A DNA stretch of 64,000 bases from Candidatus Dojkabacteria bacterium (lineage in GTDB: Bacteria; Patescibacteriota; Dojkabacteria; B142; WJKM01). A program made the translations under genes and the position numbers. The stretch is taken from NCBI GenBank assembly GCA_014729085.1, contig WJKM01000011.1, forward strand, positions 170,852 to 234,851, in the 5' to 3' direction. Position 1 is the first letter of the stretch, and every line of letters begins with the position of its first letter. The notes beneath the pieces were generated by a model. That model saw only the letters and a program-made list of their open reading frames with translations, had not been told where the DNA came from and did not search any database. Of this stretch, positions 2,218 to 53,205 are shown one piece after another.

Positions 2218-2370
2218 ATGGAACAAGAAAGATTTAGAGATTACTTACCTTTTTTATTGATAAGTGCATTAGCTTTAGGAGGTCTAACAGCCTGTGGAAA
2301 TGAGACAAATGTAGTCCCAGATCCTACCGAATCACCCATTCCTGATCCAGATCCTACAGCTACTTCTACT
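2218..2370 (+). repeat. ~150-nt 5' gene module (signal peptide plus start of linker) duplicated at 3478-3630
   Basis: Direct comparison of the two gene starts: identical except for about 3 nt (attacttacc vs atcacatgcc). The sequences diverge completely right after ...gatcctacagctact. Confidence 0.8.
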
Positions 2371-3384
2371 CCTGTACCTACAGCTACCGCAACACCCTTG
2401 CCTGTCTCTGAACCTACATCAACTCCAGGCACAGAATTAAATTCCGACGAAAGATGCAGTATTTCCTTTAATAATGTCGGTTTAGATGCAGACTATACCG
2501 AATGGACAGGAGCGACTACATTGAATGGAGAATTTGCAGACACACAGATGCGCATAGGGCTTGAGAACCATGCCGGTTGGGAATTGTCTTTTGCAGAAGA
2601 TAACTTTGAGGATGTAGTTACTCAAGTTATAAACTCCTGCGGGATGGATATAGACGCAAGAGAAGACAGTCGTTATCCTTTAATAATGAATTTTATCGAT
2701 TACAACGAATATGGAGGAAAGGCCATCTGGCCTGAATTAACTACCGACGAGGAAGGCAACCCAACATTAGAACATGATAGGTTGGCTGTCAGCTTACCTT
2801 ATGTGTATATAGATATTTTACCAAGTATCTTACAAATGAGGCATTATGACTATGAGGAAGGTTCTTATACAGATGCCGTTCACGACTGGCTTATTAATCA
2901 GGGTTTTTCAGAAAATGACCTTCTTCAAGGAGATCTCGATGATCTCTTCGATATGGTGATATCAAAAATAGCATTAGAAGAGACTATAGAACTTCCTTTA
3001 TTAAATCAACAAATACCTCTTCTTGAAGACACATATAATACAGACATTACTGACGTACAAAGTTTAGCAACCACGATTGGACAGCACGAGGATACAGCAT
3101 ATCCTGAAACAGGATTTACGCTTCCAGCTGAACAACCTGATGAATTAAATTACTGGATAGATAATTATTGTGACCATTTAAGTTTACCTATAACCTCAGC
3201 ATATGTAGAAGCTATGACAGAAGGAGTAAGTTTACCTTTCTTAATACATGACTTTGATAAAGATACCATGCTTGCAGTTCTTAGGAATTCACAATCATAT
3301 ACACCAGAACAAATAAATACTATAGAAGCATGGTTAAATGCCGAACAAGCAATCCAAGAAACAAGAGTAGATTATTTCGATTAG
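2218..3384 (+). CDS. MEQER-family lipoprotein 1 (acidic secreted protein)
   Basis: Starts MEQERFRDYLPFLLISALALGGLTAC-G, i.e. a signal peptide with a lipobox. A Pro/Thr/Asp-rich linker (PDPTESPIPDPDPTATSTPVPTATATP) is followed by an acidic domain. The first ~50 aa are near-identical to the ORF at 3478. Confidence 0.7.
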   Translation: MEQERFRDYLPFLLISALALGGLTACGNETNVVPDPTESPIPDPDPTATSTPVPTATATPLPVSEPTSTPGTELNSDERCSISFNNVGLDADYTEWTGATTLNGEFADTQMRIGLENHAGWELSFAEDNFEDVVTQVINSCGMDIDAREDSRYPLIMNFIDYNEYGGKAIWPELTTDEEGNPTLEHDRLAVSLPYVYIDILPSILQMRHYDYEEGSYTDAVHDWLINQGFSENDLLQGDLDDLFDMVISKIALEETIELPLLNQQIPLLEDTYNTDITDVQSLATTIGQHEDTAYPETGFTLPAEQPDELNYWIDNYCDHLSLPITSAYVEAMTEGVSLPFLIHDFDKDTMLAVLRNSQSYTPEQINTIEAWLNAEQAIQETRVDYFD

Positions 3385-3477
3385 TCAATAGGAGTACTTA
3401 TCTAACCTATCAGATTTATAAAATCAAATAATCAGATAAATATAATATTTTTAAATCACTTTTTTACATTATTCTTC

Positions 3478-3630
3478 ATGGAACAAGAAAGATTTAGAGA
3501 TCACATGCCTTTTTTATTGATAAGTGCATTAGCTTTAGGAGGTCTAACAGCCTGTGGAAATGAGACAAATGTAGTCCCAGATCCTACCGAATCACCCATT
3601 CCTGATCCAGATCCTACAGCTACTGCTCTA
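3478..3630 (+). repeat. second copy of the duplicated 5' lipoprotein module (see 2218-2370)
   Basis: Same nucleotide string atggaacaagaaagatttagagat...cctgatccagatcctacagctact. Confidence 0.8.
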
Positions 3631-4482
3631 CCTGCTCTTACTGCAACACCTGAAGACATATTCACAGATGATGATGGCGATTATGTAAACGATAGTGATG
3701 AGGCTTTTCTTGGAATGACACCAGGTGTACATGATGAAATGATAGATCTTCCTGAAGGTCGATTCCAGTTTCACTTAAGGATTAATGGGGATCAATTTGT
3801 ATATTTTGACGGAGATAATTATGATCCCTATATTCAAATTAATCCAGAGACACTATCTAGCATCTTGTCTGATCTAGAAAACCCCGATTTTGGTGATAAA
3901 ATAACCCCTCAATTTGACTTTAGCTCTCAAATTTGGAACCAATACCTAGGCGCTAATCCTGAGCTTCAAAATACGGGTATACCTAATGCCTTTAATTTCA
4001 GGCCTGAAGATTACAACGAAAGAGTAATTTATATGAATCAAGACTTTTTCCATGACTTGTTCCCGCTTCAATTCCTTTACGATGATAAAAGTTACGATCC
4101 AGTAGAAGGGCTGAGAATCAGACAGACACTAGATTCTTTAGGAGTCGTAGACGATGACTACTCAAACTATTCCTATGAACAATTGGTGGAGGCGGGAACC
4201 ACAGCAATATTTTCTGAAGAAATATTTGAATGTACATCCGGTGACTACCCAAGTTTCACTTCACAAGAAGATGCTGATGCTCATTCACTAGATTTTAAAA
4301 GGCGAGTTTTTAGAGACGTTTTAGAAGGTCGTATCGAGCCTTTATTTGATACTACAACGATTGAAATGTTTGACCCAGCGTATATCAGAACCCAAATAGA
4401 AAGCTGGCCTTGGTTTCGAGATGATATGATCCAACAAACAGAACAATATTTTGATGAGGAATTTCCAGAATGGAGAAATTAG
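3478..4482 (+). CDS. MEQER-family lipoprotein 2
   Basis: MEQERFRDHMPFLLISALALGGLTAC-G lipoprotein signal. The N-terminus is shared with lipoprotein 1, followed by an unrelated acidic body of 334 aa. Confidence 0.7.
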   Translation: MEQERFRDHMPFLLISALALGGLTACGNETNVVPDPTESPIPDPDPTATALPALTATPEDIFTDDDGDYVNDSDEAFLGMTPGVHDEMIDLPEGRFQFHLRINGDQFVYFDGDNYDPYIQINPETLSSILSDLENPDFGDKITPQFDFSSQIWNQYLGANPELQNTGIPNAFNFRPEDYNERVIYMNQDFFHDLFPLQFLYDDKSYDPVEGLRIRQTLDSLGVVDDDYSNYSYEQLVEAGTTAIFSEEIFECTSGDYPSFTSQEDADAHSLDFKRRVFRDVLEGRIEPLFDTTTIEMFDPAYIRTQIESWPWFRDDMIQQTEQYFDEEFPEWRN

Positions 4483-4592
4483 TCCCTATTGATAACTATT
4501 ATATTTTTAATCATGTTATATCTTATCTATTGAAAAATTAAAGAGAAGCCTGATATGATCACGACATACTTTATTATCTTATAATATTTAAA

Positions 4593-5624
4593 ATGGAACA
4601 AGAACGATTAATAAATTATTTGCCTCTTCTCTTAATAGGACTGGGAACGGCCGCTTGTACAGGTGGATTTGGTCAGGAAGAAATTCCAACTCAAACACCA
4701 ATATCCGATCCTGACGATAATCCCTTACCTCCTGATGGAACTCCAACATCTCCGGGAATACAAGCCGGAGAAGTAAGTGGTGGAGAGACCATAGAAATGC
4801 CAATACAAACTTTAGTAGATAATGACGAAGATTTAGTTGCAAGTATATATGATATCGATGACAACAATCCACTGGTAGGTATGCAATGTTCAGCAGAAGT
4901 ACATTCTGAAGGAAGAACTTATCAAAATGGTAACCCCAATCTACCAATAGATTTACATGAATTAGTTATAGACTGTCCAGGTAACCAAGATTGGGAACTA
5001 CAATTTCAGCAATTCGTAGGTGCGCAACCAAGAAATAATTGGTTCACAGCAGAAATAGGTGGGCCAGATCATGATAGATCCGATATATTTCTATGGGATT
5101 CCCCTTCCCATTTAGATTATAATTGTGCCACTCTAGCGCTAGATAGGACTTTCCCAAACCTTCCATTACCGATAACAGAACAAGGGGGTCTAGGAGGAAT
5201 ATTAACTACAAATAATACTTATGAACTACTTGATATGTTGATAGGAGATCCAGACGCTGGATTGGAGAGAGGTGCGGGTTTAGGATATTTAAAAGAAGAT
5301 GGTTATATTGATGGACTAGAATTTGATAGGCTAGTTGAAGAAGGAAATGTTGATCAAATTTATGATCTTATCGACTCTGATGATCTTATATTCATTGTTA
5401 CACGGGATGTTGGAAACTTTGATACATCCGAAGATGGGTATCATATGGCGGTTCCAGCCTTATATCCAAACACGGGGCAAGAAACTTTTTATCAGAAATT
5501 CAGTATTGAAAGTCCTACTGGTTATGGTGGACCGGAAGCTATAAAAAATCATTATGATAATACAGGAAAGGATATTGTTGGGTTTTACATAATTCAACCT
5601 ACAGCACAATTCTCAACACCCTAA
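4593..5624 (+). CDS. MEQER-family lipoprotein 3
   Basis: MEQERLINYLPLLLIGLGTAAC-TGG lipobox, a Pro/Asp-rich linker and an acidic domain; 343 aa. Confidence 0.65.
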   Translation: MEQERLINYLPLLLIGLGTAACTGGFGQEEIPTQTPISDPDDNPLPPDGTPTSPGIQAGEVSGGETIEMPIQTLVDNDEDLVASIYDIDDNNPLVGMQCSAEVHSEGRTYQNGNPNLPIDLHELVIDCPGNQDWELQFQQFVGAQPRNNWFTAEIGGPDHDRSDIFLWDSPSHLDYNCATLALDRTFPNLPLPITEQGGLGGILTTNNTYELLDMLIGDPDAGLERGAGLGYLKEDGYIDGLEFDRLVEEGNVDQIYDLIDSDDLIFIVTRDVGNFDTSEDGYHMAVPALYPNTGQETFYQKFSIESPTGYGGPEAIKNHYDNTGKDIVGFYIIQPTAQFSTP

Positions 5625-5885: not shown

Positions 5886-8168
5886 ATGGGACGAAGAAGA
5901 CGTAGAAGAAAAATCACATACGACAGCAGGGAAAGCAAGATCGTACTTGGTCTTATTTCTCTTCTTTTTGCAGTTATCTGTGTACTCAGTAATTTTACTG
6001 ATGGGGTTGCATTCGAACTTGCATTGAAACTATTTGGGGGAGCAGTCTATCCAGTTGCAGGATTTTTTCTAGTATTGGCTCTCAAACTTTTCCAAATTAA
6101 ACCAGATAGAATTACCACACGCTCTGTAATAGGGATGTTAATAATTTCTATTTCTTGGGCTATCTTTTTATCTGGCAAAACAGGGCTGCCTGTGGATGTC
6201 AAAAACTTAGCCTATCAGGGTCAATACGGAGGAATTGTTGGTTTCGAACTTGCAGAAAAAATAAGTACTTTTCTTTTTCGTGATGCTATTAGACCTCTGA
6301 TGATTTTCATAATCTTCTTTTCTGTTCCTCTAGTTCTTTCAATGAGATTAGGAGAGTATCTGGATATGATTGGAAGTGTATTTGGTTGGATTTTTAAACA
6401 ATTGAATAAACTTAAAGAGGCTGTGGCTAAAACTCAAAATATAAACCCTGAAAAACAAGAATCCGTCACCCACGAAAATCAGACTGAACCTACTATGGTT
6501 GGAGATTTTCTCTCTTCACAAAAGTATTCTGAGAGAAAACAGGAGGAGCAAGACAAAAATGAGGAAAGTGTGGCTAACAAAGGACCCGAATTCGAGGGTG
6601 TAGCAGACGACGAGAAAACAGAGAAAAGTGTAAAGAATCCTAAAATAAAATACAAAAAGTCTGAAGAAAACGAAGACCTACTCCTCCACGACGAATTACA
6701 GTTTCCAGATTGGGAACTTCCTCCTCTTGATCTTTTAAAAAGAGACGGAAAAAGAAAATCAATTAAATCAGACATTGAGAAAAATTCCAAAATTATTGAG
6801 CAAACGCTTAAAAGTTTCAATGTCAAAGCACAAGTTGTTGATGTTTCGGTTGGGCCTTCAGTTACACAATATGCCTTGAACATTGCTTTAGGAACAAAAG
6901 TTTCAAAAATTGCAAACCTAAAAAATGACCTTGCTCTTGCATTGGCAACCTCATCTAATGCAGTTCGAATAGAAGCACCTATCCCAGGAACCAGCTTTGT
7001 CGGTATTGAAGTTCCTAATAAAAAGAGACAGATGATTCTCTTTGGGGACTCAGTAGGTGAGAAAGAGATGGAAAAAGGCAGACTGACAGTTACGCTTGGA
7101 GAAGATGTTGGCGGTAAAAAAATCTTTATCGATATTCAGAAAATGCCTCATCTTCTTATTGCGGGAGCAACAGGTTCTGGTAAATCAGTTGTGACCAATT
7201 CATTCATAATGTCTATGCTTATGAAAAAGACGCCGGATGAAGTCCGAATGATACTCGTTGACCCAAAACAAGTTGAATTTTCCGACTATAATGGCATTCC
7301 TCATCTACTCACACCAGTTATCACAAATATGAACAAGGTGAACAATGCACTAAAATGGGCTATTGTGGAAATGGAAAACCGCTACACTGAATTTAAGGAA
7401 AATAAAGTTAGAAATATAGAAATGTACAATGAAAAATTAGGCTTCTCTGCCCTTCCCTATATCGTAATTGTAATAGATGAGATGGCTGATATGATGATGG
7501 GTCAAGCTGGCGCTGAGATCGAATCTTCTATTGTTAAACTTGCCCAGAAGGCAAGAGCAACAGGCATTCATTTAATCTTAGCCACCCAGAGACCTTCTGT
7601 TGATGTTATAACCGGACTTATAAAAGCAAATATTCCTGGACGCTTAGGTTTAAGCGTAACTACACAAATAGATTCCCGGGTTATTCTCGATCAAATTGGA
7701 GCTGAGTCTCTTCTCGGTCGTGGTGATCTGCTTTACAAAGATCCCGGGAAAAATAGACTTGAGAGAATTCAGGGAACTTTTATTTCTCAAGATGAAGTTT
7801 TAAGAGTCGTGAACTTTATAAAACGACAAACACCTGATGAGGTTGAATACACAGAAGAAATTACACAAAAGCAGGTACCCCCGGATGCACCTCCAGGTAC
7901 TGCAGAATCAATTAAATTTTCTGATGATGAACTGTTTGCAAAAGGAGCAAGAATTATCGTTAATGCTCGAAAGGGCTCTTCTTCCCTACTCCAACGCAAA
8001 CTCAGCATCGGGTATAATCGTGCAGCTAGGCTTATAGATGAATACCACAAATACGGTATTGTAGGCCCTTCCAAGGGAAGTAAACCAAGAGATATTTTAA
8101 TAACTGATATCGAGGCCTTTTTGCAAGGCGGTGGCCAAGCTGAAGACCCAAGTTCCGCTGAAGATTGA
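5886..8168 (+). CDS. ftsK: DNA translocase FtsK/SpoIIIE
   Basis: N-terminal TM helices, an acidic linker, a motor domain with Walker A GATGSGKS and Walker B VIVIDEMADMM, and a C-terminal gamma winged-helix (LLQRKLSIGYNRAARLIDEYHKYGIVGP). Confidence 0.9.
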   Translation: MGRRRRRRKITYDSRESKIVLGLISLLFAVICVLSNFTDGVAFELALKLFGGAVYPVAGFFLVLALKLFQIKPDRITTRSVIGMLIISISWAIFLSGKTGLPVDVKNLAYQGQYGGIVGFELAEKISTFLFRDAIRPLMIFIIFFSVPLVLSMRLGEYLDMIGSVFGWIFKQLNKLKEAVAKTQNINPEKQESVTHENQTEPTMVGDFLSSQKYSERKQEEQDKNEESVANKGPEFEGVADDEKTEKSVKNPKIKYKKSEENEDLLLHDELQFPDWELPPLDLLKRDGKRKSIKSDIEKNSKIIEQTLKSFNVKAQVVDVSVGPSVTQYALNIALGTKVSKIANLKNDLALALATSSNAVRIEAPIPGTSFVGIEVPNKKRQMILFGDSVGEKEMEKGRLTVTLGEDVGGKKIFIDIQKMPHLLIAGATGSGKSVVTNSFIMSMLMKKTPDEVRMILVDPKQVEFSDYNGIPHLLTPVITNMNKVNNALKWAIVEMENRYTEFKENKVRNIEMYNEKLGFSALPYIVIVIDEMADMMMGQAGAEIESSIVKLAQKARATGIHLILATQRPSVDVITGLIKANIPGRLGLSVTTQIDSRVILDQIGAESLLGRGDLLYKDPGKNRLERIQGTFISQDEVLRVVNFIKRQTPDEVEYTEEITQKQVPPDAPPGTAESIKFSDDELFAKGARIIVNARKGSSSLLQRKLSIGYNRAARLIDEYHKYGIVGPSKGSKPRDILITDIEAFLQGGGQAEDPSSAED

Positions 8169-8313: not shown

Positions 8314-9168
8314 ATGGAACAGGAAAGATTTGGATGGTCTCCAGCTCTATTTATAATTGGTGCCACGCTAATGGGAGCGGGAGCTTGTAAGGCGGCGACT
8401 GAGGAACCAAACAGCTTGACCACAGTGATGCCTGAAAACCCAATTGATTCAGACCAAGACGGGTTTTCAGATGAAACAGAAAATCTTTTAGGAACAGACC
8501 CACATACAGCAAATACCATAACCTACGAGCAACCCGAAGGAGTTTTTAGTCCGACGGAAAACAGGACTTCCCCGAAATATCCCGAACTTGATTTGCTTAC
8601 TGCGTTCAAATTACAGAGTATGAATCCCGAACTTTATGAAGGATTAGACCGTAGTGAGTTTTATGATGAACACTTCAGCTCTGGTTATGAAATCATACAG
8701 GAAGGAAACTACATGACAAACTGTTTTGCTGATGTCCTAGGTATAGATAGAGGCTGGATACATGACAAAATTTTCAGACAAGCCCTTGCTGATCCGGATT
8801 CAGGACTATACGAGGAAGGAACTGCTTTAATACCAACAGAAACAGAATATTCTGAATTATTTTATTCAAGCTTGGAACTTGACCCCTTCTATACAGTCGA
8901 ACTTATGTTGTCAGAAGCTCAAGACGGAGACATACTGGTGTTTAGAGGTGTTGAAGGCATAGATTGGGATAGTGACGATGAGATAGATGGCTTTCAATTT
9001 GGTAGCTTTCCCCATGCGGCCGAAATCGATGTTGACCCAGAGGATGGCACCATTTCTTTTATAAACAAAATAGGGGAACTTGATTATGTTAGATCATACG
9101 ATATACATGAGCTAGCTAACCTTTTTGATGCACCAATAGTAAGTTTATACAGACACAAAGACGAATAA
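8314..9168 (+). CDS. MEQER-family lipoprotein 4 with a TSP3-like Ca-binding motif
   Basis: MEQERFGWSPALFIIGATLMGAGAC-K lipobox, then DSDQDGFSDETENLLGTDPHTANT (DxDxDGxxDxxE...GTDP). Confidence 0.65.
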   Translation: MEQERFGWSPALFIIGATLMGAGACKAATEEPNSLTTVMPENPIDSDQDGFSDETENLLGTDPHTANTITYEQPEGVFSPTENRTSPKYPELDLLTAFKLQSMNPELYEGLDRSEFYDEHFSSGYEIIQEGNYMTNCFADVLGIDRGWIHDKIFRQALADPDSGLYEEGTALIPTETEYSELFYSSLELDPFYTVELMLSEAQDGDILVFRGVEGIDWDSDDEIDGFQFGSFPHAAEIDVDPEDGTISFINKIGELDYVRSYDIHELANLFDAPIVSLYRHKDE

Positions 9169-9538: not shown

Positions 9539-10858
9539 ATGGAACAAGAAAGCAAGGTTAAAGCTGGTGCTGGTCTTTTAGCATTAGGACTCCTAACAGC
9601 TCTAGGCGCTACAGGATGCGGAGGTAGTCCAGAAGCAGGTGGGTTTACTGAAGATAACCCAAATGATGATAATCCAACTATTTCACTTACTCAGGTTCCT
9701 GGTACAATACCAGAACCTCGAGATGACGATTTCATCGGACCTGTAGCAACTACGCCAGCTCCTGGAAACCTTCCATTCTACCCAGACTATGATGGTAATG
9801 GTTGGATTCACGTTAATGAAAATAGACAGGAATTTATGAATATGTTCGGAAATTATCTGCTTACACTTGGATTGCCCCCTGAAGATGCGATGGACATAAT
9901 GCAAAGTCTGAAAAGTTACGATCTCGACAATAATGATAGAGCTGATATTCTGGACATTTTTTATGATGAAAATAATCAATTCATACAACACGCAAATGCT
10001 TCGGAATTAATTGCTCCCTATAAAAATTTCGATGGAGATTTATATATTGATGGACATGATCCAGACGATGATGGAGATTTGATTCCGGATGACCAAGAAA
10101 TAGGTTCTCCATACGCTTGGGATACAGATAACGATGGTGCAGGAGATTACTTAGAAGCTAATACTGGAACTGATCCTAATGACCCAGAAAGCTATAATCC
10201 AGTTTATATAAACATGCCTTCTGAACTCAACTTATCTTCTTTTGAAATATTTACCTCTAACGTAGAGAATCCAGGAGAAGCGGATGTAATTTTTTTCCCA
10301 TTCCGACATGGAGATCAGCGAACTGCAAGAACTGCAGGAATGGAAACTGAACGTGAAATATCCCAGGATTTTCTAGAGACATATCATGGGCTTTATCCTG
10401 ATAAACCCTTAGTATTTTTGTTAGAAGGTATTCCTAGAGGTGAAGTTGTTCCTCCATCTAATAGAGATAGATTAACATTTAATTATCAGGCAGATGAAGA
10501 TACAGCTATAACTGCTGGGTGGGATGATAGGATTAGTAATGAAATGACTTTTCAAGTATTAGAGGAAAAAGCTGAATTACTTAACCCTTTATGGGAAGAA
10601 GGCTATGGAATCCTAGAAACAGAAGAAAGTACAGGTTCTCCCATCGTAGGAAGGTGGGTAGAGCTTAATCAAACTGAAGATTCACTTTCTGAAACAAGAA
10701 ATCAAAGCCTAGCAGATACTATCCAAGATTATATTGATCAAGGTTATACTGTTGTTGTAACAGCTGGTGAACTTCACTACACCGATGATGATGCACAGGT
10801 TGTAAGAGATTACGTTGAAAGCCAAAATCATATCGTATTTCATCAAAAAGATGAATAA
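9539..10858 (+). CDS. MEQER-family lipoprotein 5 with TSP3-like acidic repeats
   Basis: MEQESKVKAGAGLLALGLLTALGATGC-GG lipobox, then DPDDDGDLIPDDQE and DTDNDGAGDYLEANTGTDPNDPESYNP motifs; 439 aa. Confidence 0.65.
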   Translation: MEQESKVKAGAGLLALGLLTALGATGCGGSPEAGGFTEDNPNDDNPTISLTQVPGTIPEPRDDDFIGPVATTPAPGNLPFYPDYDGNGWIHVNENRQEFMNMFGNYLLTLGLPPEDAMDIMQSLKSYDLDNNDRADILDIFYDENNQFIQHANASELIAPYKNFDGDLYIDGHDPDDDGDLIPDDQEIGSPYAWDTDNDGAGDYLEANTGTDPNDPESYNPVYINMPSELNLSSFEIFTSNVENPGEADVIFFPFRHGDQRTARTAGMETEREISQDFLETYHGLYPDKPLVFLLEGIPRGEVVPPSNRDRLTFNYQADEDTAITAGWDDRISNEMTFQVLEEKAELLNPLWEEGYGILETEESTGSPIVGRWVELNQTEDSLSETRNQSLADTIQDYIDQGYTVVVTAGELHYTDDDAQVVRDYVESQNHIVFHQKDE

Positions 10859-12570: not shown

Positions 12571-13203
12571 ATGAATTTAAAAAAGTTAATTGTTTTAATA
12601 TTTCTTGGCCTTTTAGGTGTATTTATTATCTTTATTTTTATCATGCTTTTTACACTAGGCGGAAGTATTGTCCTTGGAAAAAGCTTAATTGAGGATAATC
12701 AATACTACAGATCTCCTCCCCTAGAATTTTCAAAAAGTGATAGCTTGACTGTACAATTAACAGCACAAGTAGATTCATCTAACGAATTCATACTTCATAT
12801 ACCAAAAATTGACCTTACAAAGAACGTCATCCCTAATGTGAACCCAATTAATGAGAGCATTTATATGGATGTTATTAAACAAGATGTAGCTCATGGAAAA
12901 TGGACACTCACCCCAAATGAAGTGGCTGAACAAAATTCAGGAATCACCTATATATTTGCTCACAGAGCTGGTGAATTTGCCATATTCGATCAAATCGATC
13001 AATTAAACAAAGGTGATCTAGTTGAAATTTTTTACCATGGTGATATTTATCTTTACCAAGTGGAGACCAAGCGTGTAGTCGAAAAATCCCATGTTCAAGA
13101 ATACACTTCAATATCTGACGAACCTCTTCTTCGTATCCAAACTTGCGAAAACGGTCAAAAACAAAGATTAATTATTGATTCACTTCTTGTTCAAGTTGTT
13201 TAA
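12571..13203 (+). CDS. sortase-family transpeptidase
   Basis: N-terminal TM anchor; LHIPKIDL motif, His in IFAHRAG, catalytic Cys in LLRIQTCENG (a TLxTC-like motif), and a downstream Arg (QKQRLII). Confidence 0.7.
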   Translation: MNLKKLIVLIFLGLLGVFIIFIFIMLFTLGGSIVLGKSLIEDNQYYRSPPLEFSKSDSLTVQLTAQVDSSNEFILHIPKIDLTKNVIPNVNPINESIYMDVIKQDVAHGKWTLTPNEVAEQNSGITYIFAHRAGEFAIFDQIDQLNKGDLVEIFYHGDIYLYQVETKRVVEKSHVQEYTSISDEPLLRIQTCENGQKQRLIIDSLLVQVV

Positions 13204-13339: not shown

Positions 13340-13903
13340 GTGTTACTATCTGTCATCAAATTACATGTGAATGAGAAGCAACTAATTAAAAAAGCGAAAA
13401 AAGGCAAGAAAGAAGCTTTGGAAAAGCTGTATAGCCAAAATTTTACCTCATTATTCAAGTATGTAAAATACAAGGTAGATTCTGATGAAATAACTGAAGA
13501 TATTTGTGCAGAAAGTTTTACACGTGCATTTGAAACTATTGAAAGATTTAGAGGTAAATCATCATTTAAAACTTATGTCTATGCAATAGCACGGAACTTA
13601 ATAATTAAACATTATCAAACAAAATCAAAAAAGTATTCCCTGACAGAAAGAGAGTATTTATTAAAAGACTATGATCAAAACGATCAAAACCAAACAAATA
13701 AAAAAAGTGATGCAGAAAAAGAAGTTGCGGAACTATTGTCCAATCTAAATGAAAAAGAACGAAAAGTAATTGAATACAGATATTTATTTAGTATGAGTGT
13801 AAAAGATACAGCCGATGCTTTAAACCTTAGTGAGTCAAATGTGAAAGTCATTACTCACCGTGCTTTAAAAAAGTGCAAGAAAATTGTATTTGAAAAGACT
13901 TAG
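13340..13903 (+). CDS. ECF-type sigma-70 family RNA polymerase sigma factor
   Basis: Region 2-like ...ICAESFTRAFETIERF... and a region 4 HTH (ELLSNLNEKERKVIEYRYLFSMSVKDTADALNLSESNVKVITHRALKKC). The track begins at a GTG at 13340; the true start is probably a few codons downstream. Confidence 0.7.
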   Translation: MLLSVIKLHVNEKQLIKKAKKGKKEALEKLYSQNFTSLFKYVKYKVDSDEITEDICAESFTRAFETIERFRGKSSFKTYVYAIARNLIIKHYQTKSKKYSLTEREYLLKDYDQNDQNQTNKKSDAEKEVAELLSNLNEKERKVIEYRYLFSMSVKDTADALNLSESNVKVITHRALKKCKKIVFEKT

Positions 13904-15104
13904 TAAAATATTTAGAAAACCTAAAATTATGGATACAAACTTCAACGATACAATCAAAAAGTTTCAAAGATATTCTGAGGATCTTAGTCCTTCAAAACAA
14001 CAAGAACAAAGGGTTAGAAACGCGATCTTTTCTAATAATTTTGAAAATTCCAAAAAAGAAAGTACTTTATCTAAATTTTTAAATCTATTTTCTATGAAAA
14101 ATAAACACAAGGCTCTCTGGGGAGTTGCCGGACTTTTTGGACTATGTATATTCGTTTCCCTCCCCTTGATTTTTATGGGCAAAATGCAAATGACAAAGCA
14201 AAATGCCCTCCCCCCTTCACCTCCGGAAAGGATACATTCAGAATCGCAAAATGAGGTGATGGAAGATGAAATGACACAGGAGTATAAAAATAAAGAGACG
14301 CTGAATGAACCCGATTCTTCCGACTTTATAGAAATGGAAGAACAAGAATCTGTCTCGGGATACTATGGTACTGAAACTGACATAATGCCTGACTTTGATT
14401 ATGAGAGAGATGGAACTGATGTACCTGAAGATACCAAAACACCTATGTACGAAAGAGCTCAAAAAAGAGAGGCTTATATAGATATCACTGTTGATGACTT
14501 TAATAACCGCTATACAGAATTTACAGGGAAAATATCATCAATAGGCGGTTATATTCAAACTAGCGAAACTAACTCATATGAAGATTATAGTTACGGAAAC
14601 TTTACAATCCGCGTTCCGGTCGCAAAATTTGATGAAATGATGGATTTCCTCAGAAATTTGGGTGTTTCTATAAATAGTGAAAATATTACAATTACAGATA
14701 AACAAAACGAACTAACTCATGTCTCTAAAAAGATTGAGGATAATGAAGCCCAAATTAAAACCCTAAAAGATAAGGACTATCTTACAAACGAGGAGAAAGA
14801 AAAACTAGCTAGACTAGAAAGAGAGCTTGAATCTGACAAAAAAGAACAGAAGGAAATACTTGAAGAGACAGAATTCTCAACTATTAGTGTATACATGCGT
14901 ACAGAAGATATTAAAGAAGATGAATGGTCAATTTCCAATACTTTTAGTGAAGTCTTGAGGACTTTGGAATATATAGTACAATTCTGGATCAACGTTGCTT
15001 TATGGAGTCTGGTTCCTCTAGCCTTCTTCCTACCAGTAGTAATAGGAATTGTTTTACTTATTAAACTTCTTAAAAAAAAGAGAAGGAACACAAAGAAAAG
15101 TTAA
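13884..15104 (+). CDS. membrane protein with a DUF4349-like extracytoplasmic domain; putative cognate anti-sigma factor
   Basis: Immediately downstream of the sigma gene; the likely start is the ATG at 13929 (MDTNF...). It has a short cytoplasmic N-terminus, a TM helix (ALWGVAGLFGLCIFVSLPLIF), a DUF4349-like segment (AYIDITVDDFNNRYTEFTGKISSIGGYIQTS...FTIRVPVAKFDEMMDFLRNLG), a coiled coil and a C-terminal TM. Confidence 0.55.
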   Translation: MYLKRLSKIFRKPKIMDTNFNDTIKKFQRYSEDLSPSKQQEQRVRNAIFSNNFENSKKESTLSKFLNLFSMKNKHKALWGVAGLFGLCIFVSLPLIFMGKMQMTKQNALPPSPPERIHSESQNEVMEDEMTQEYKNKETLNEPDSSDFIEMEEQESVSGYYGTETDIMPDFDYERDGTDVPEDTKTPMYERAQKREAYIDITVDDFNNRYTEFTGKISSIGGYIQTSETNSYEDYSYGNFTIRVPVAKFDEMMDFLRNLGVSINSENITITDKQNELTHVSKKIEDNEAQIKTLKDKDYLTNEEKEKLARLERELESDKKEQKEILEETEFSTISVYMRTEDIKEDEWSISNTFSEVLRTLEYIVQFWINVALWSLVPLAFFLPVVIGIVLLIKLLKKKRRNTKKS

Positions 15105-15226: not shown

Positions 15227-15853
15227 ATGGAAATAATTTCAAGAGATACCCAAGAGAAAGTTAATTGGGGGAATACAGCTAAGAACCTATTAGCCTTAGC
15301 TGGTGGTCTTGGTCTAGCAGGCCTTGCAATAGACGGCCTTGACGGACACATTGATACAGTGGATATAACAAACTTTAGACACTACAAAGACACCGATGGC
15401 GATGGACTTTCCGATGAATTAGAAAACCAACTCGGAACTGATTTTCTAGATCCTGATACCAATAACGATGGGTTAACTGACTGGCAGAACTTAAATGATG
15501 GTGGAAATCCTTTTAACTACTATAAAGATGAAGTAAAGAATGAATTATCAGATGAAGATATGGATAATCTACCTAATATGGATGGAGATGATGACTGGGA
15601 TGGTATTGACGAGGATGTCGATGGAGACTTAATTGTTAACACACTTGAACTTCAAGATTGGGGAGAAGGTATGATGCTAGGAACAGATCCACTTAATCCA
15701 GATACCGATGGTGATGGATTAACTGACGGAGAGGAAGTTGAACCAGTAAATATAGAAGGTGGCTTATATACAGGTGTGAGACCTTATGATATGGATGGAG
15801 ATGCAGTAATCGGTCCAAGAGACCCAGGTGAACAAGAAAATCATAATCCTTAA
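15227..15853 (+). CDS. acidic Ca-binding repeat protein (thrombospondin type 3-like DxDxDG repeats)
   Basis: Hydrophobic N-terminal segment (LLALAGGLGLAGLAI), then repeated DTDGDGLSDELENQLGTDFLDPDTNNDGLTD ... GTDPLNPDTDGDGLTDGEE motifs. Confidence 0.55.
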   Translation: MEIISRDTQEKVNWGNTAKNLLALAGGLGLAGLAIDGLDGHIDTVDITNFRHYKDTDGDGLSDELENQLGTDFLDPDTNNDGLTDWQNLNDGGNPFNYYKDEVKNELSDEDMDNLPNMDGDDDWDGIDEDVDGDLIVNTLELQDWGEGMMLGTDPLNPDTDGDGLTDGEEVEPVNIEGGLYTGVRPYDMDGDAVIGPRDPGEQENHNP

Positions 15854-49727: not shown

Positions 49728-51563
49728 ATGAAAAATATTTTTGTGAATCCATTTTTAAAACTCATTATTTTCTTTTCGGTTTTTTTTGTTTTCAATTTAG
49801 TTGGTTTTAGTACTGTACATGCAGATGAGTTTTTACTAGCTTTTCCAATTGAAGACAGTTTTTGTGAAAGAGCAGACGAAGGAGGTTTAGGAGAAGGATA
49901 TTGGAAAAAGTTTATTTTGGAAGATGCTACTGGACAAAGATATGATTTTATACATAGAAATTATCCATACAACGCTTCAGAAGGAGAGAATTTAAATATC
50001 TACATAGATCCTTTAGAATGCAACTGGGAACAAGGTCTAACTTTTAAAGTACTCATAGACACAGCTAATCTCCCTTTAAATTTAACCTTGACCTTGGTAG
50101 GAGAAGACACAACAGGGAATGAATTTACTGTTTCGGATCAGAGCAATAATTATGAACTTACTTTTCTTAATGCAGGTAGTGATGATTATGATGTATGGTG
50201 GGGAGGTGGGACTACCGAGGAACCTCCTGATGACCCAATTGAATTTTATCAGTCAGGTACTGGTCCTGAGCCTGGCGAACAACCAACATCGAGGCCTGCA
50301 CCAACAGTAGTCGAGGGTAGATGTTCGGAGTTAGGAGAATCTGATCCAAAATACCTAGAGAATTACTTTACCTGTACAATGGTTAGAGGACGAAGTGGTC
50401 GGACTGTAAGTCCAGGTGTTTCTGAAACATATTGCAATACTAGTGATGGATATTATGAGGATCCGAAATGTTTGGGAGGGGATCTAGGTGAGGATACTGT
50501 ATGCGTTCCTTGTATAACAGGAGAGTCCGGATCTGGTGAATATCAAGCTGATTGTTCCGCTACAGGAACTTGTGGAGGTGGGCTTGAATGTCGAGACATA
50601 GGGGGAAACTTAATATGTGTACACAGGTTTAGAAGTCAGGGAGAAGGTGAGAGATGTACTGTTGGAGCTCAGGAATGTGCATATACAAGATATTCTCCCT
50701 ATACCTGTGAAGCTAGTGATATTGGTGGGGCAGTTGGGGCTTTGGGAACTTGCGTTACTCGTAGTAGGACTGATATAGGGGATGATGAAGAAGCTTCCGG
50801 TGCTATTGGATTTTATAAATCAGCAGAATTAGAGGAGGAACAGGTTTTTTTAGAAATAAGCAAAGGTTCTTCAATGTCTCGTTATGAGGTAACAACATGC
50901 GAAGAAATAAATGCATGTGCAAGAGGAGAGCTGGCTGAATATGCAGTTGATCCAGCCGAACCAGGTAAGTACAAGATAAGAGTTTTTCGTTCAGGTAGCA
51001 CCGATGCAGAAGATGAAGATGAAATTGAGATAGGAGAAGGGGAGCAAAGAATGATTATAGTTCATCTTGAAGATGGAAAACTATCTTTGTCTGATATAGA
51101 GGCAGGTTATTTAGGAATAAGTTTATCTAATGAAGGACTTGAGGGTTGTGCTATAAGTACAGGATATGACCTAACTTGTGCAAATTGTATTGCCAGAAAA
51201 GCTAATGGTGACCCCTTTACAAGTATAGAAGAGGTTGTTGCATCTTTCCAAACGGGGGATGCAGCTTATACAAATAATGTTTATACAGCACTGGGTTGTT
51301 GGGATACTACATATGAAGGAACTCTTACAAGAGTATTACAGATAGGGTTAGGGATTTCGGGAGCATTAATACTTGTTAGAATGGGGCAGGCCTTAACCAA
51401 GATAATGTCAGCTGATAATCCTGAAAAGAAAAAAGAAGGAATCGATATGATAGTTTCTGCATTTATGGCATTGTTGATGTTATTGTTTGGAGCGATAGGG
51501 CTAAGGTTTTTAGGAATAAATGTACTTAAAGTCTTACCTCCTGGTACAATAGAAATAGAATGA
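49728..51563 (+). CDS. large secreted Cys-rich protein with a C-terminal VirB2/TrbC-like two-helix membrane hairpin (array member 1)
   Basis: Signal peptide (…GFSTVHA-DE); ~450-aa ectodomain with more than 30 Cys (EGF-like spacing); C-terminal TM1 VLQIGLGISGALILV, loop SADNPEKKKEG, TM2 IDMIVSAFMALLMLLFGAIGL. The last ~150 aa are ~85% identical to member 2. Confidence 0.6.
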   Translation: MKNIFVNPFLKLIIFFSVFFVFNLVGFSTVHADEFLLAFPIEDSFCERADEGGLGEGYWKKFILEDATGQRYDFIHRNYPYNASEGENLNIYIDPLECNWEQGLTFKVLIDTANLPLNLTLTLVGEDTTGNEFTVSDQSNNYELTFLNAGSDDYDVWWGGGTTEEPPDDPIEFYQSGTGPEPGEQPTSRPAPTVVEGRCSELGESDPKYLENYFTCTMVRGRSGRTVSPGVSETYCNTSDGYYEDPKCLGGDLGEDTVCVPCITGESGSGEYQADCSATGTCGGGLECRDIGGNLICVHRFRSQGEGERCTVGAQECAYTRYSPYTCEASDIGGAVGALGTCVTRSRTDIGDDEEASGAIGFYKSAELEEEQVFLEISKGSSMSRYEVTTCEEINACARGELAEYAVDPAEPGKYKIRVFRSGSTDAEDEDEIEIGEGEQRMIIVHLEDGKLSLSDIEAGYLGISLSNEGLEGCAISTGYDLTCANCIARKANGDPFTSIEEVVASFQTGDAAYTNNVYTALGCWDTTYEGTLTRVLQIGLGISGALILVRMGQALTKIMSADNPEKKKEGIDMIVSAFMALLMLLFGAIGLRFLGINVLKVLPPGTIEIE

Positions 51564-51603
51564 ATGCAGGAGATATATTATTAACAAAAGCTTAAAAAAT
51601 ACT

Positions 51604-53205
51604 ATGAACGTTGTCTTGAAGTTATTTAAGAGAATACCATTTTTTCTATGTATTTTTATCTTAGTTTTCGTTCTAGATATAAAGTTTAATAGAACTTATG
51701 TTTATGCCACTGATGTGATTTATGTGAGGATCAATAATACTTGTCCAAGGGAACCGAATCAATTAAAAAGTATAGATAGTTTTGAGGTAGAAGGATCTGA
51801 TCTTGAACCAATAATGACTAGCGGAATACTCGGTGCATACTGTCCCTCAGCTCCTGATGGAGGGCAGTTTTTCCAATGGTTTAATGGTCCTGCCGAGATG
51901 GAATATACTTTTCATTTAACTGGGGAATTTGAAAGCGGAGAGGAAATAGATGACGAGATGGTAACTGCAACACCTGTTGCTTCATCAGATGGAATGGGGG
52001 GTACATGGCATTATGTAGAGCTTACATTTGATCCGCCAAGCTCTGCAACTTCGACACCACCTACTACGGGTACTACAACTCTTACTCCAACAACAAGTCC
52101 AGGCAATAACCCAGGAACTATTAATTTCATCTCGCCTGTTTCATCAGTAACAAATGCTGGAGCTATACCGCTTGAGGTAAGTTTAGAAGATATAAATTGT
52201 GACGATGACTATTCCTTTCGTGTTGACATAACGGATATTTCAGGGGCACGAACAACAAATATTTTTTTTCAGAACATTGATAACGACGAGATAGATGATG
52301 GAGAATATTCAATATCCCAATCATTTGACCTCTTGAGAGATCCTCCTTGGTGCATCTCAACTGATGCTTGCAGCAATCAAGAGTTCAGGTTAACAGCATA
52401 TGCTGATTGTGGAAGCGAGACTAACAGAGGACAAAGGAATTTTACGATATATAAGGAATCCGAGGAAATAACTGATGTATCTATTGAAATCGAAACGGTA
52501 GATCTAGGCGATACTTATGAAATTCAACTCGCTTTCAACAATGAAAGAAGGAATTTTACTGAAGAAAGCGGGACAGAAGTATTTGAGAATGTGGCTTTTG
52601 GAAATCATCCTTATACTGCACGTGCTGTTTATACTGATGGGGACGAGGAAGTAACCGAAAATTATGAAGGAGAGGTAGAGGTTACAGAGCATAATCAGAT
52701 CATCATTATCAGAATAAGAAAAGGAGGCTCACATGCTGTCGTAGCGCCAATGAAATATGTATCAATTTCCAACGAGGGACTCGAAGGATGCGCAGTAAGT
52801 ACAGGGTACGACTTAACTTGTGCAAATTGCATTGCCAGAAAAGCAAATGGTGACCCCTTTACCAGTGTAGAAGAAGTTGTAACATCATTTGAATCTCAGG
52901 ATGCAATTTATACCAATAATGTATATACTGCATTTGGATGTTGGGATCCCACTTATTCCGGCACTATAACCAGAATACTACAAATAGGGCTAGGAATTTC
53001 GGGGGCAATGATACTTCTTAGAATAGGCCAAGCTCTAACAAAGATAATGTCGGCTGATAACCCTGAGAAAAAGAAAGAAGGAGTAGATATGATTGTTTCC
53101 GCATTCATGGCTTTGATTATGTTACTTTGTGGGGCTATTGGTTTACGTTTCTTGGGCATAAATGTACTTAAAGTTTTACCTCCTGGTACAATAGAAGTGG
53201 AGTAG
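51604..53205 (+). CDS. large secreted Cys-rich protein with a C-terminal VirB2/TrbC-like hairpin (array member 2)
   Basis: Signal peptide; Thr/Pro-rich stretch (TSTPPTTGTTTLTPTTSPGNNPG); unrelated N-terminal head; C-terminal module ISNEGLEGCAVSTGYDLTCANCIARKANGDPFTSVEEVV...LKVLPPGTIEVE shared with member 1. Confidence 0.6.
   Translation: MNVVLKLFKRIPFFLCIFILVFVLDIKFNRTYVYATDVIYVRINNTCPREPNQLKSIDSFEVEGSDLEPIMTSGILGAYCPSAPDGGQFFQWFNGPAEMEYTFHLTGEFESGEEIDDEMVTATPVASSDGMGGTWHYVELTFDPPSSATSTPPTTGTTTLTPTTSPGNNPGTINFISPVSSVTNAGAIPLEVSLEDINCDDDYSFRVDITDISGARTTNIFFQNIDNDEIDDGEYSISQSFDLLRDPPWCISTDACSNQEFRLTAYADCGSETNRGQRNFTIYKESEEITDVSIEIETVDLGDTYEIQLAFNNERRNFTEESGTEVFENVAFGNHPYTARAVYTDGDEEVTENYEGEVEVTEHNQIIIIRIRKGGSHAVVAPMKYVSISNEGLEGCAVSTGYDLTCANCIARKANGDPFTSVEEVVTSFESQDAIYTNNVYTAFGCWDPTYSGTITRILQIGLGISGAMILLRIGQALTKIMSADNPEKKKEGVDMIVSAFMALIMLLCGAIGLRFLGINVLKVLPPGTIEVE

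Follow-up and report, generated by a model that had tools for sequence, protein, structure and literature searches.

The stretch of DNA analysed here (the window) comprises 64,000 nucleotides (nt; 33.8% G+C) of a Candidatus Dojkabacteria genome and contains two adjacent genes, here called A and B, which begin with near-identical sequence and encode predicted lipoproteins with otherwise unrelated bodies. Gene A (2218-3384, + strand; GF362_04220, MBD3362898.1) specifies a predicted lipoprotein of 388 amino acids, in which a long Pro/Thr stalk precedes an orphan body of acidic composition. Gene B (3478-4482, + strand; GF362_04225, MBD3362899.1) specifies one of 334 amino acids, whose stalk is short and is followed by a degenerate TSP3-like acidic motif; its body is again an orphan. 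A third tandem paralogue, C (4593-5624, + strand; GF362_04230), has a leader and stalk that are 51% identical to those of A at the amino acid level and 58% at the nucleotide level, and its body is unrelated. We consider it probable that a short tract of recent gene conversion between the leaders of these neighbouring paralogues accounts for the common beginning of A and B.

Two more genes of the same kind follow on the other side of ftsK, the order on the + strand being dnaG (366-2111), A, B, C, ftsK (5886-8168), D, E. In gene D (8314-9168, + strand) the leader is of the MEQERF type, and in gene E (9539-10858, + strand) it is of the MEQESK type; both also have a lipobox and a TSP3 repeat. All five are thus encoded on the same strand, flanking ftsK. 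They fall in the GF362_04220-04245 range (proteins MBD3362898-MBD3362903) of a Candidatus Dojkabacteria metagenome-assembled genome (MAG), on a contig of 301,743 bp, and the locus is ordinary core chromosome near dnaA and dnaN.

Each of the five proteins opens with MEQE(R/S) at the first possible start codon, followed by a hydrophobic core and a lipobox cysteine. The lipobox rule that we used (PROSITE PS51257-type) asks for a Lys or Arg within residues 1-7, a hydrophobic stretch free of charges, the pattern [LIVMFWSTAG]2-[LIVMFYSTAGCQ]-[AGS]-C, and the cysteine at position 15-35. It picks out all five proteins, with SALALGGLTA-C26 in A and B and with C22, C25 and C27 in C, D and E, respectively, and no other open reading frame (ORF) of at least 80 amino acids in the window. 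By this signal rule A to E are predicted lipoprotein precursors, that is, putative Lgt/LspA substrates; neither lgt nor lspA lies within the window, the part of the genome that was examined. The leader positions kept across the family are MEQE, P11, G22 and the Cys. On sequence grounds, A to E appear to form a small lineage-specific family held together only by the leader: the MEQE signal peptide, the lipobox and an acidic, Pro-rich stalk.

Two properties of these proteins were noted in passing. Their n-regions (MEQERF.., MEQESK..; first 8 codons at 2218, 3478, 4593, 8314 and 9539) are neutral to acidic in net terms, an uncommon property among Sec/lipoprotein signals; exported proteins of the window outside the family begin with MKK or MNLKK. 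The mature proteins have a calculated isoelectric point (pI) of ~4, with 18-22% Asp+Glu and only 3-5% Lys+Arg (mature A and B: pI about 4, 19-21% Asp+Glu). A saline or alkaline habitat could be the reason for this acidity, as could the binding of cations on the cell surface.

A special translation-initiation signal was considered for the five genes and ruled out. A Shine-Dalgarno-like tetramer within 25 nt upstream of the start codon is found in just 2 of the 45 window ORFs of at least 150 amino acids; because the other 43 also lack such a motif, its absence from the lipoprotein genes is unremarkable, and translation initiation appears to be independent of this motif throughout the genome.

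The 5' module of genes A and B

The two copies of the module, at 2218-2364 and 3478-3624 (both + strand), are codons 1-49 of A and of B. They align in register, at an offset of 1260 nt, over 147 nt with three mismatches (2242 T/C, 2245 T/A and 2247 A/G, in the order A/B). All three lie in codons 9-10 (2242-2247, + strand), where A has TAC TTA, close to the TAT TTG of C (both Tyr-Leu), and B has CAC ATG (His-Met); copy 2 therefore differs from copy 1 solely by HM in place of YL. From 2248 to 2364 (+ strand) the sequence is 100% identical to 3508-3624 over 117 nt, and this segment, bounded by the mismatches at 2247 and 2365, would be the minimal recent conversion tract. Besides the module, the 64-kb window has only one other long repeat. 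The initial annotation had proposed a near-identical module of about 150 nt with some three differences, and had placed its breakpoint after ctacagctact, where one copy continues with tct and the other with gct; both observations are accurate. It had also extended the module to 2370 and 3630, which overshoots by 6 bases: the true ends are 2364 and 3624, and 2365-2370 already holds four mismatches.

Translation of the module gives MEQERFRD(YL/HM)PFLLISALALGGLTA followed by CGNETNVVPDPTESPIPDPDPTAT. In copy 1, MEQERFRDYLPFLLISALALGGLTA is the signal peptide, Cys26 of the lipobox is encoded at 2293-2295, and CGNETNVVPDPTESPIPDPDPTAT forms residues 1-23 of the mature stalk, which in both A and B is acidic and rich in Pro, Asp and Thr. 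Both ORFs begin at their first available start codon.

The identity of the two copies extends to silent sites. Among codons that specify the same amino acid in A and B there is no synonymous difference, either in codons 1-45 (0/43) or over the whole of codons 1-49 (0/47), and the three nucleotide changes in codons 9-10 are all non-synonymous. In the leader and stalk of A and C, by comparison, 13 of 21 such codons differ synonymously and third-position identity is 46% (0/47 versus 13/21, Fisher's exact P = 6e-9). Overall, the leaders of A and B are 98% identical in nucleotides and are 57-58% identical to that of C; against the 58% background of A versus C, a run of 117 consecutive identities has P ~2e-28, which excludes chance. 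Since silent sites are also identical between A and B, unlike between A and C, the identity points to recent copying at the DNA level and not to selection on the protein.

Upstream of the start codon the relationships are reversed. Over the 70 nt that precede the ATG, A and B are no more alike than chance (612 of 1000 shuffles reach the alignment score), and they have nothing in common except an in-register TTTTTTAC octamer at -20 to -12. A and C, in contrast, are homologous in this region: 2177-2216 and 4546-4585 align over ~40 nt at ~78% identity, a score reached by 1 of 1000 shuffles, and the alignment includes an extended -10 element, CTGATAT(A/G)AT, and a T-rich 5' untranslated region (UTR). 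Gene A thus goes with C by its upstream sequence and with B by its leader, a mosaic that is a classical signature of recombination. The constant upstream region assumed in the initial annotation is absent, because the 70-nt sequences of A and B resemble each other no more than shuffled sequence does.

These differences bear on transcription. A promoter-like site precedes A (2161-2189, + strand; TAGAAA, 17 nt, TG-TATAAT), and among the three tandem genes good sites of this kind occur at A and C only. Gene B is preceded by a TATAAT hexamer (3441-3446, + strand), 32 nt before its ATG, without an acceptable -35 element or TG. No terminator is predicted between A and C. The hexamer is only possibly a weak promoter of B's own, and B may just as well be transcribed by read-through from A. 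Within the family the 5' regulatory unit is therefore patchy, being found at A and C with B, which lacks it, in between. The A-B and B-C spacers also contain an AT-rich match of 18/20 (3435-3454 and 4491-4510; GATAA(A/C)TAT(A/T)ATATTTTTAA), which overlaps the only -10-like hexamer of B and is probably due to chance in AT-rich intergenic DNA. A repeat comparison of the window detects no similarity 3' of the A and B bodies beyond this one 20-nt match.

The 5' edge of the identity is the ATG itself, and its 3' edge falls between 2364 and 2365, within a Pro/Thr-rich stretch. Just beyond, 2372-2396 (+ strand) aligns with 3626-3650 at 19 of 25 positions after a 6-nt register shift, as a diverged continuation of the Pro/Thr stalk that reads TATP in both proteins and includes synonymous differences between them. 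The score of this alignment is reached by 91 of 2000 codon shuffles and by 242 of 2000 shuffles confined to the linker, so that stalk homology beyond the tract (P ~0.05-0.12) is suggestive only in sequence of such low complexity. The tract begins and ends with the homology of the family as a whole, which runs from the ATG to the end of the stalk, and for this reason the divergence of A and B looks abrupt. A tract that depends on homology has to stop there, and the 3' breakpoint provides no evidence for a dedicated junction. Of the two processes proposed in the initial annotation, a recent event of the gene-conversion type agrees with the sharp edges and the complete lack of synonymous differences; cassette exchange is not supported, as the window shows no silent copies, no common 3' flank and, among ORFs of at least 150 amino acids, no recombinase.

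Protein bodies, database relatives and neighbouring genes

Past the stalk, A and B show no detectable relationship. BLASTP finds no similarity beyond residue 57, the Smith-Waterman score of the two bodies is below the shuffle mean (z = -0.5), and neither blastn nor tblastn reveals similarity at the DNA level or in another frame. As far as sequence can show, the bodies are unrelated or have diverged beyond recognition. The initial annotation had also called them unrelated, and had named identity through the whole genes as the sign of a simple tandem duplication; on alignment the bodies show no similarity, and with upstream regions that are unrelated as well, such a duplication is ruled out. Pairwise comparison of all five bodies gives z values of 0.9 or less, except for a marginal value for D and E (z = 1.85) that stems from their common TSP3 repeats. 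Pfam and NCBIfam return no match for A, B or C, and TSP3 repeats for D and E. A sequence search of the PDB with A and B yields linker noise only, and AlphaFold2 single-sequence models reach a mean predicted local distance difference test score of 38 for A and 35 for B, too low to be of use, so that the two bodies may yet have a common fold.

TSP3-type acidic calcium-binding repeats are encoded at 8446-8505 (D), at 10121-10186 (E) and in another ORF of the window (15227-15853). Their Pfam TSP3_bac bit scores are 23.0 in D and 22.1 in E, below the gathering cut-off of 25, and 37.4 in the ORF at 15227, above it. A degenerate TSP3-like copy, TDDDGDYVNDSDEAFLGMTP, follows the stalk of B (3650-3720, residues ~60-80). 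In a tblastn comparison within the window, B is weakly similar to D over residues 1-97 (E = 0.03). The motif is a hint of distant kinship between B and the genes D and E and, together with the weak similarity to D, it suggests that B is an old member of the family, not a foreign ORF with a new leader.

Database searches returned little beyond the locus itself. Among 5.8 billion protein clusters, A and B each match only themselves and one another, through the module (100 bits), with no homologue of either body and no third copy of the near-identical module; the window likewise holds two copies only. The proteins of A to E are all singleton clusters. A profile built with HMMER from the five leaders returned, from 1.84 billion representative proteins, only the five training sequences at a threshold of E = 0.001, at which a sixth member as diverged as C or E could be missed, so that absence elsewhere in the genome is not proven. 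A codon-degenerate pattern for LTACGNETNVV has no match in metagenome contigs and none in viral contigs. Other candidates were discarded: P0003 as a homologue of A and B is a spurious match of the Pro/Thr linker, and ATGGAACARGAAAGATTT has at least 120 matches in metagenome contigs, which we attribute to chance, none of the matches listed then showing a lipoprotein signal. A synteny scan of genome contigs by way of DnaG gave relatives of 28-43% identity from other phyla and was saturated by the universal zinc-finger motif. No related genome or contig with these genes emerged from the database searches. A literature search found nothing on lipoprotein families of Dojkabacteria.

Downstream of the family, an adjoining envelope module contains genes for a sortase (12571-13203), an extracytoplasmic function (ECF) sigma factor (13340-13903) and a DUF4349 protein (13884-15104), a neighbourhood consistent with an envelope of Gram-positive type. 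Elsewhere in the window, the adjacent genes at 49728-51563 and 51604-53205 encode secreted or membrane proteins that form a mirror image of the A/B pair: their N-terminal ~350-430 amino acids are unrelated, while their C-terminal ~180 amino acids, which include a hydrophobic anchor, are 75% identical, so that a shared anchor carries variable ectodomains. At the nucleotide level 51126-51554 and 52768-53196 are 80% identical over 429 nt, and neither protein has a Pfam match.

Rival accounts of the shared leader

We favour gene conversion as the origin of the module. Some 117-147 nt of the leader-stalk unit would have been copied non-reciprocally from one gene, overwriting the diverged version of the recipient, and the likely route would be RecA-type strand invasion between misaligned paralogous leaders, either between sister chromosomes or within one chromosome. 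We infer both this mechanism and a prior leader of B's own from the alignments. Codons 9-10, at which A agrees with C and B differs, look like a remnant of that older leader, or like a mismatch-repair patch; with the diverged TATP block on the other side, they may point to a tract embedded in older homology. The window contains genes for LexA, UvrD and SbcCD, consistent with a working apparatus for homologous recombination and the SOS response; RecA itself is not seen there. The outcome of the event, for which no function is shown, would be that A and B share an export signal, a lipid-anchor site and the first 23 mature residues. The 147-nt direct repeat thus created could in turn mediate deletion or duplication of the 1260-nt unit that holds the body of A. 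Several points weigh against this account. With a single genome, the state of B before the event is inferred, not observed, and either gene may have been the donor. The homology 3' of the tract is, as noted, only suggestive. Codons 1-8 are identical at 24 of 24 nt, which implies either a patchy tract or a later change in codons 9-10. Finally, the dissimilarity of A and B upstream could equally mean that B never had the 5' unit of the family, so that its leader was captured.

In the last case, an independent B ORF, or one with an unrelated N-terminus, would have gained the leader and stalk of A by partial duplication or illegitimate recombination, and the locus would exemplify the birth of a new exported lipoprotein by domain shuffling instead of the homogenisation of old paralogues. 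We regard this as a serious rival, though an unlikely one. It would account for the lack of detectable homology between the upstream sequences of A and B when those of A and C are homologous, and it suits a family defined by the leader alone, with bodies in A and B that are unrelated to each other and orphans among 5.8 billion protein clusters. However, the 5' edge of identity coincides exactly with the start codon, and TTTTTTAC is in register at -20, as expected of old paralogy and improbable for a random end-point. Moreover, the segment is identical except in codons 9-10 of B, where 3 of 6 nt are different, diverged stalk homology continues 3' of the tract, and B shares the TSP3-like motif and weak similarity with D. 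Two further explanations seem much less credible. An assembly or polishing artefact, in which paralogous leaders were collapsed or mis-corrected, or strain variants joined, has to be considered for a MAG with a single contig on record and a 117-nt perfect tract within the size range of assembler k-mers. We judge it very improbable: unique sequence (the A body and a 93-nt spacer) connects the two copies, which makes the tandem order the only path that uses all pieces; both ORFs are complete and in frame; three clustered mismatches persist within the module; and, with a background identity of the leaders as low as ~58% (A versus C), neither mis-mapping nor polishing could have made 117 nt uniform. 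Purifying selection on the 147 nt as a functional RNA or DNA element (translational control, the target of a small RNA, or an antisense RNA) deserves hardly any credence. The first 12-18 nt (ATGGAACARGAA...) are indeed conserved in all five genes, but the GAA and CAA codons are merely those expected at 34% G+C, and in C, D and E nucleotide conservation does not extend past the first codons. No Rfam family matches the module, and its folding energy is no better than that of shuffled sequence on either strand (z = +0.45, -0.05 and -1.15).

The remaining alternatives ascribe a role to the module itself. A 147-nt direct repeat is a possible substrate for unequal crossing-over or single-strand annealing, and the initial annotation had proposed a mechanism by which variable bodies are exchanged while the signal peptide and the upstream region stay constant. 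In a broader form, the module would be a frequent site of recombination, programmed or selected, by which bodies are deleted, duplicated or exchanged behind one promoter. Repeats of 147 nt (117 perfect) spaced 1260 nt apart are adequate for deletion and duplication, on general knowledge and by the model of the Staphylococcus aureus lpl genes (PMC2568036). The genes encode predicted surface lipoproteins of a probably host-dependent bacterium of the Candidate Phyla Radiation (CPR). Furthermore, as no terminator is predicted from A to C and B has no good promoter, good sites being present at A and C only, a deletion would set the body of B behind the promoter-like site at 2161-2189. We nevertheless find such a system improbable. 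When all six frames of the window are searched with A to E by tblastn, the five intact genes alone are recovered, and no silent or partial body copies. No recombinase, transposase or reverse transcriptase is present among window ORFs of at least 150 amino acids. Cassette replacement needs conserved sequence on both sides of the variable segment; here there is the 5' module only and no counterpart 3', and the upstream region is not constant either. The module has just two copies in the window and in the protein clusters; its pattern has no match in metagenome or viral contigs. The copies are direct, not inverted, repeats on two complete genes, both of which are probably expressed; crossing-over between them could only delete or duplicate the A body, irreversibly, and provides no reversible exchange of cassettes. 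The swapping mechanism of the initial annotation is consequently not borne out: there is no sign that the module is a switching device, and the shared leader appears to be an ordinary by-product of tandem gene families. A last and doubtful possibility is that the 5' unit of ~200 nt (weak promoter, MEQE signal peptide, lipobox and stalk) is a portable export-and-anchor module, repeatedly carried by recombination onto orphan ORFs that are new or evolve fast, and accompanied by repeat-mediated variation in the population. If so, the dnaG-ftsK neighbourhood would be a nursery for the creation and turnover of surface lipoproteins in a genome-reduced CPR bacterium, the direct repeats would also allow variants with deletion or duplication of single bodies to arise in the population, and the modular strategy would recur in the 49728-53205 pair.

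Known systems and biological meaning

Leaders that are far more alike than the products they export have been described in several groups. In Borrelia burgdorferi, the Erp/Elp proteins are paralogous surface lipoproteins with near-identical leaders and with mature domains that are unrelated between subfamilies, a pattern attributed to recombination among paralogues. A and B resemble them in carrying near-identical leaders on unrelated lipoprotein bodies. The Borrelia genes, however, are located on multiple cp32 prophage plasmids and not in a chromosomal tandem, have a conserved promoter/operator where the upstream regions of A and B differ, and exist as many copies and alleles with documented host-ligand functions; there is no sequence homology between the two sets of proteins (no NCBIfam or Pfam match). 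The name of the Elp lipoproteins derives from an 'OspE/F-like leader peptide', according to PMC12242104, which cites Akins et al. 1999.

In the mycoplasmas, the Vpma (M. agalactiae), Vsp (M. bovis) and Vsa (M. pulmonis) systems consist of clustered lipoprotein genes with a conserved 5' UTR and signal-peptide region and with differing mature parts (PMC2268961). Switching proceeds by site-specific inversion, which brings silent genes to a single promoter with the help of a neighbouring Xer-like tyrosine recombinase whose target sites lie in the 5' UTR (PMC2268961). The A-E locus is likewise a cluster of predicted lipoprotein genes; its signal peptide is conserved at the level of the family, and its 5' UTR between A and C only. 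It differs in its complete genes in direct orientation, the absence of a recombinase from the 64 kb, the dissimilar 5' UTRs of A and B, and the restriction of near-identity to one pair.

The lpl genes of S. aureus are tandem lipoprotein paralogues in which a conserved intragenic block is a site of homologous recombination, with deletions, duplications and apparent conversions (Tsuru and Kobayashi 2008, PMC2568036). A and B are likewise tandem lipoprotein paralogues with a highly conserved intragenic nucleotide block. In lpl, though, the block is central and whole proteins are homologous, whereas here it is at the 5' end and the bodies are not homologous; and shuffling has been demonstrated across more than 10 lpl genomes (PMC2568036), compared with one genome here. 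Searches of Pfam and NCBIfam show no Lpl/DUF576 homology of A, B or C.

Conotoxins combine a conserved signal/pro region with a hypervariable mature part. The same holds for the antimicrobial peptides of anurans, whose signal/pro region is conserved and whose mature part is hypervariable (PMC13128954). In both, the leader is likewise more conserved than the product, but these genes have a eukaryotic exon structure and evolve by a different mechanism, and the comparison is conceptual only. PMC9484751 describes immunity genes of the type VII secretion system in Firmicutes, where adjacent, non-identical paralogues recombine through shared segments; as presented there, they differ from A and B in encoding cytoplasmic or membrane immunity proteins and in being homologous over whole genes.

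Judged by its sequence, the A/B locus resembles the Borrelia, Mycoplasma and S. aureus systems in outcome and has none of the features of a programmed system, such as a recombinase, inverted sites, silent genes or a single promoter; nor is it homologous in sequence to any of the three. Near-identical leaders on dissimilar lipoprotein bodies are a known phenomenon; the case is new for Dojkabacteria and does not reveal a new mechanism of variation. The surface proteins of CPR bacteria are thought to mediate attachment to the host and are almost wholly uncharacterised. Within the CPR/Patescibacteria, class Dojkabacteria, the locus would offer a clean, small case of concerted evolution of export leaders among tandem surface-protein genes, and would indicate that homologous recombination between paralogues is active in so reduced a genome. 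It leads to the prediction that deletion and duplication variants of the 1260-nt unit occur in the source population. It also brings forward five orphan, very acidic lipoproteins with a non-basic MEQE n-region as candidate determinants of the cell surface of this bacterium.

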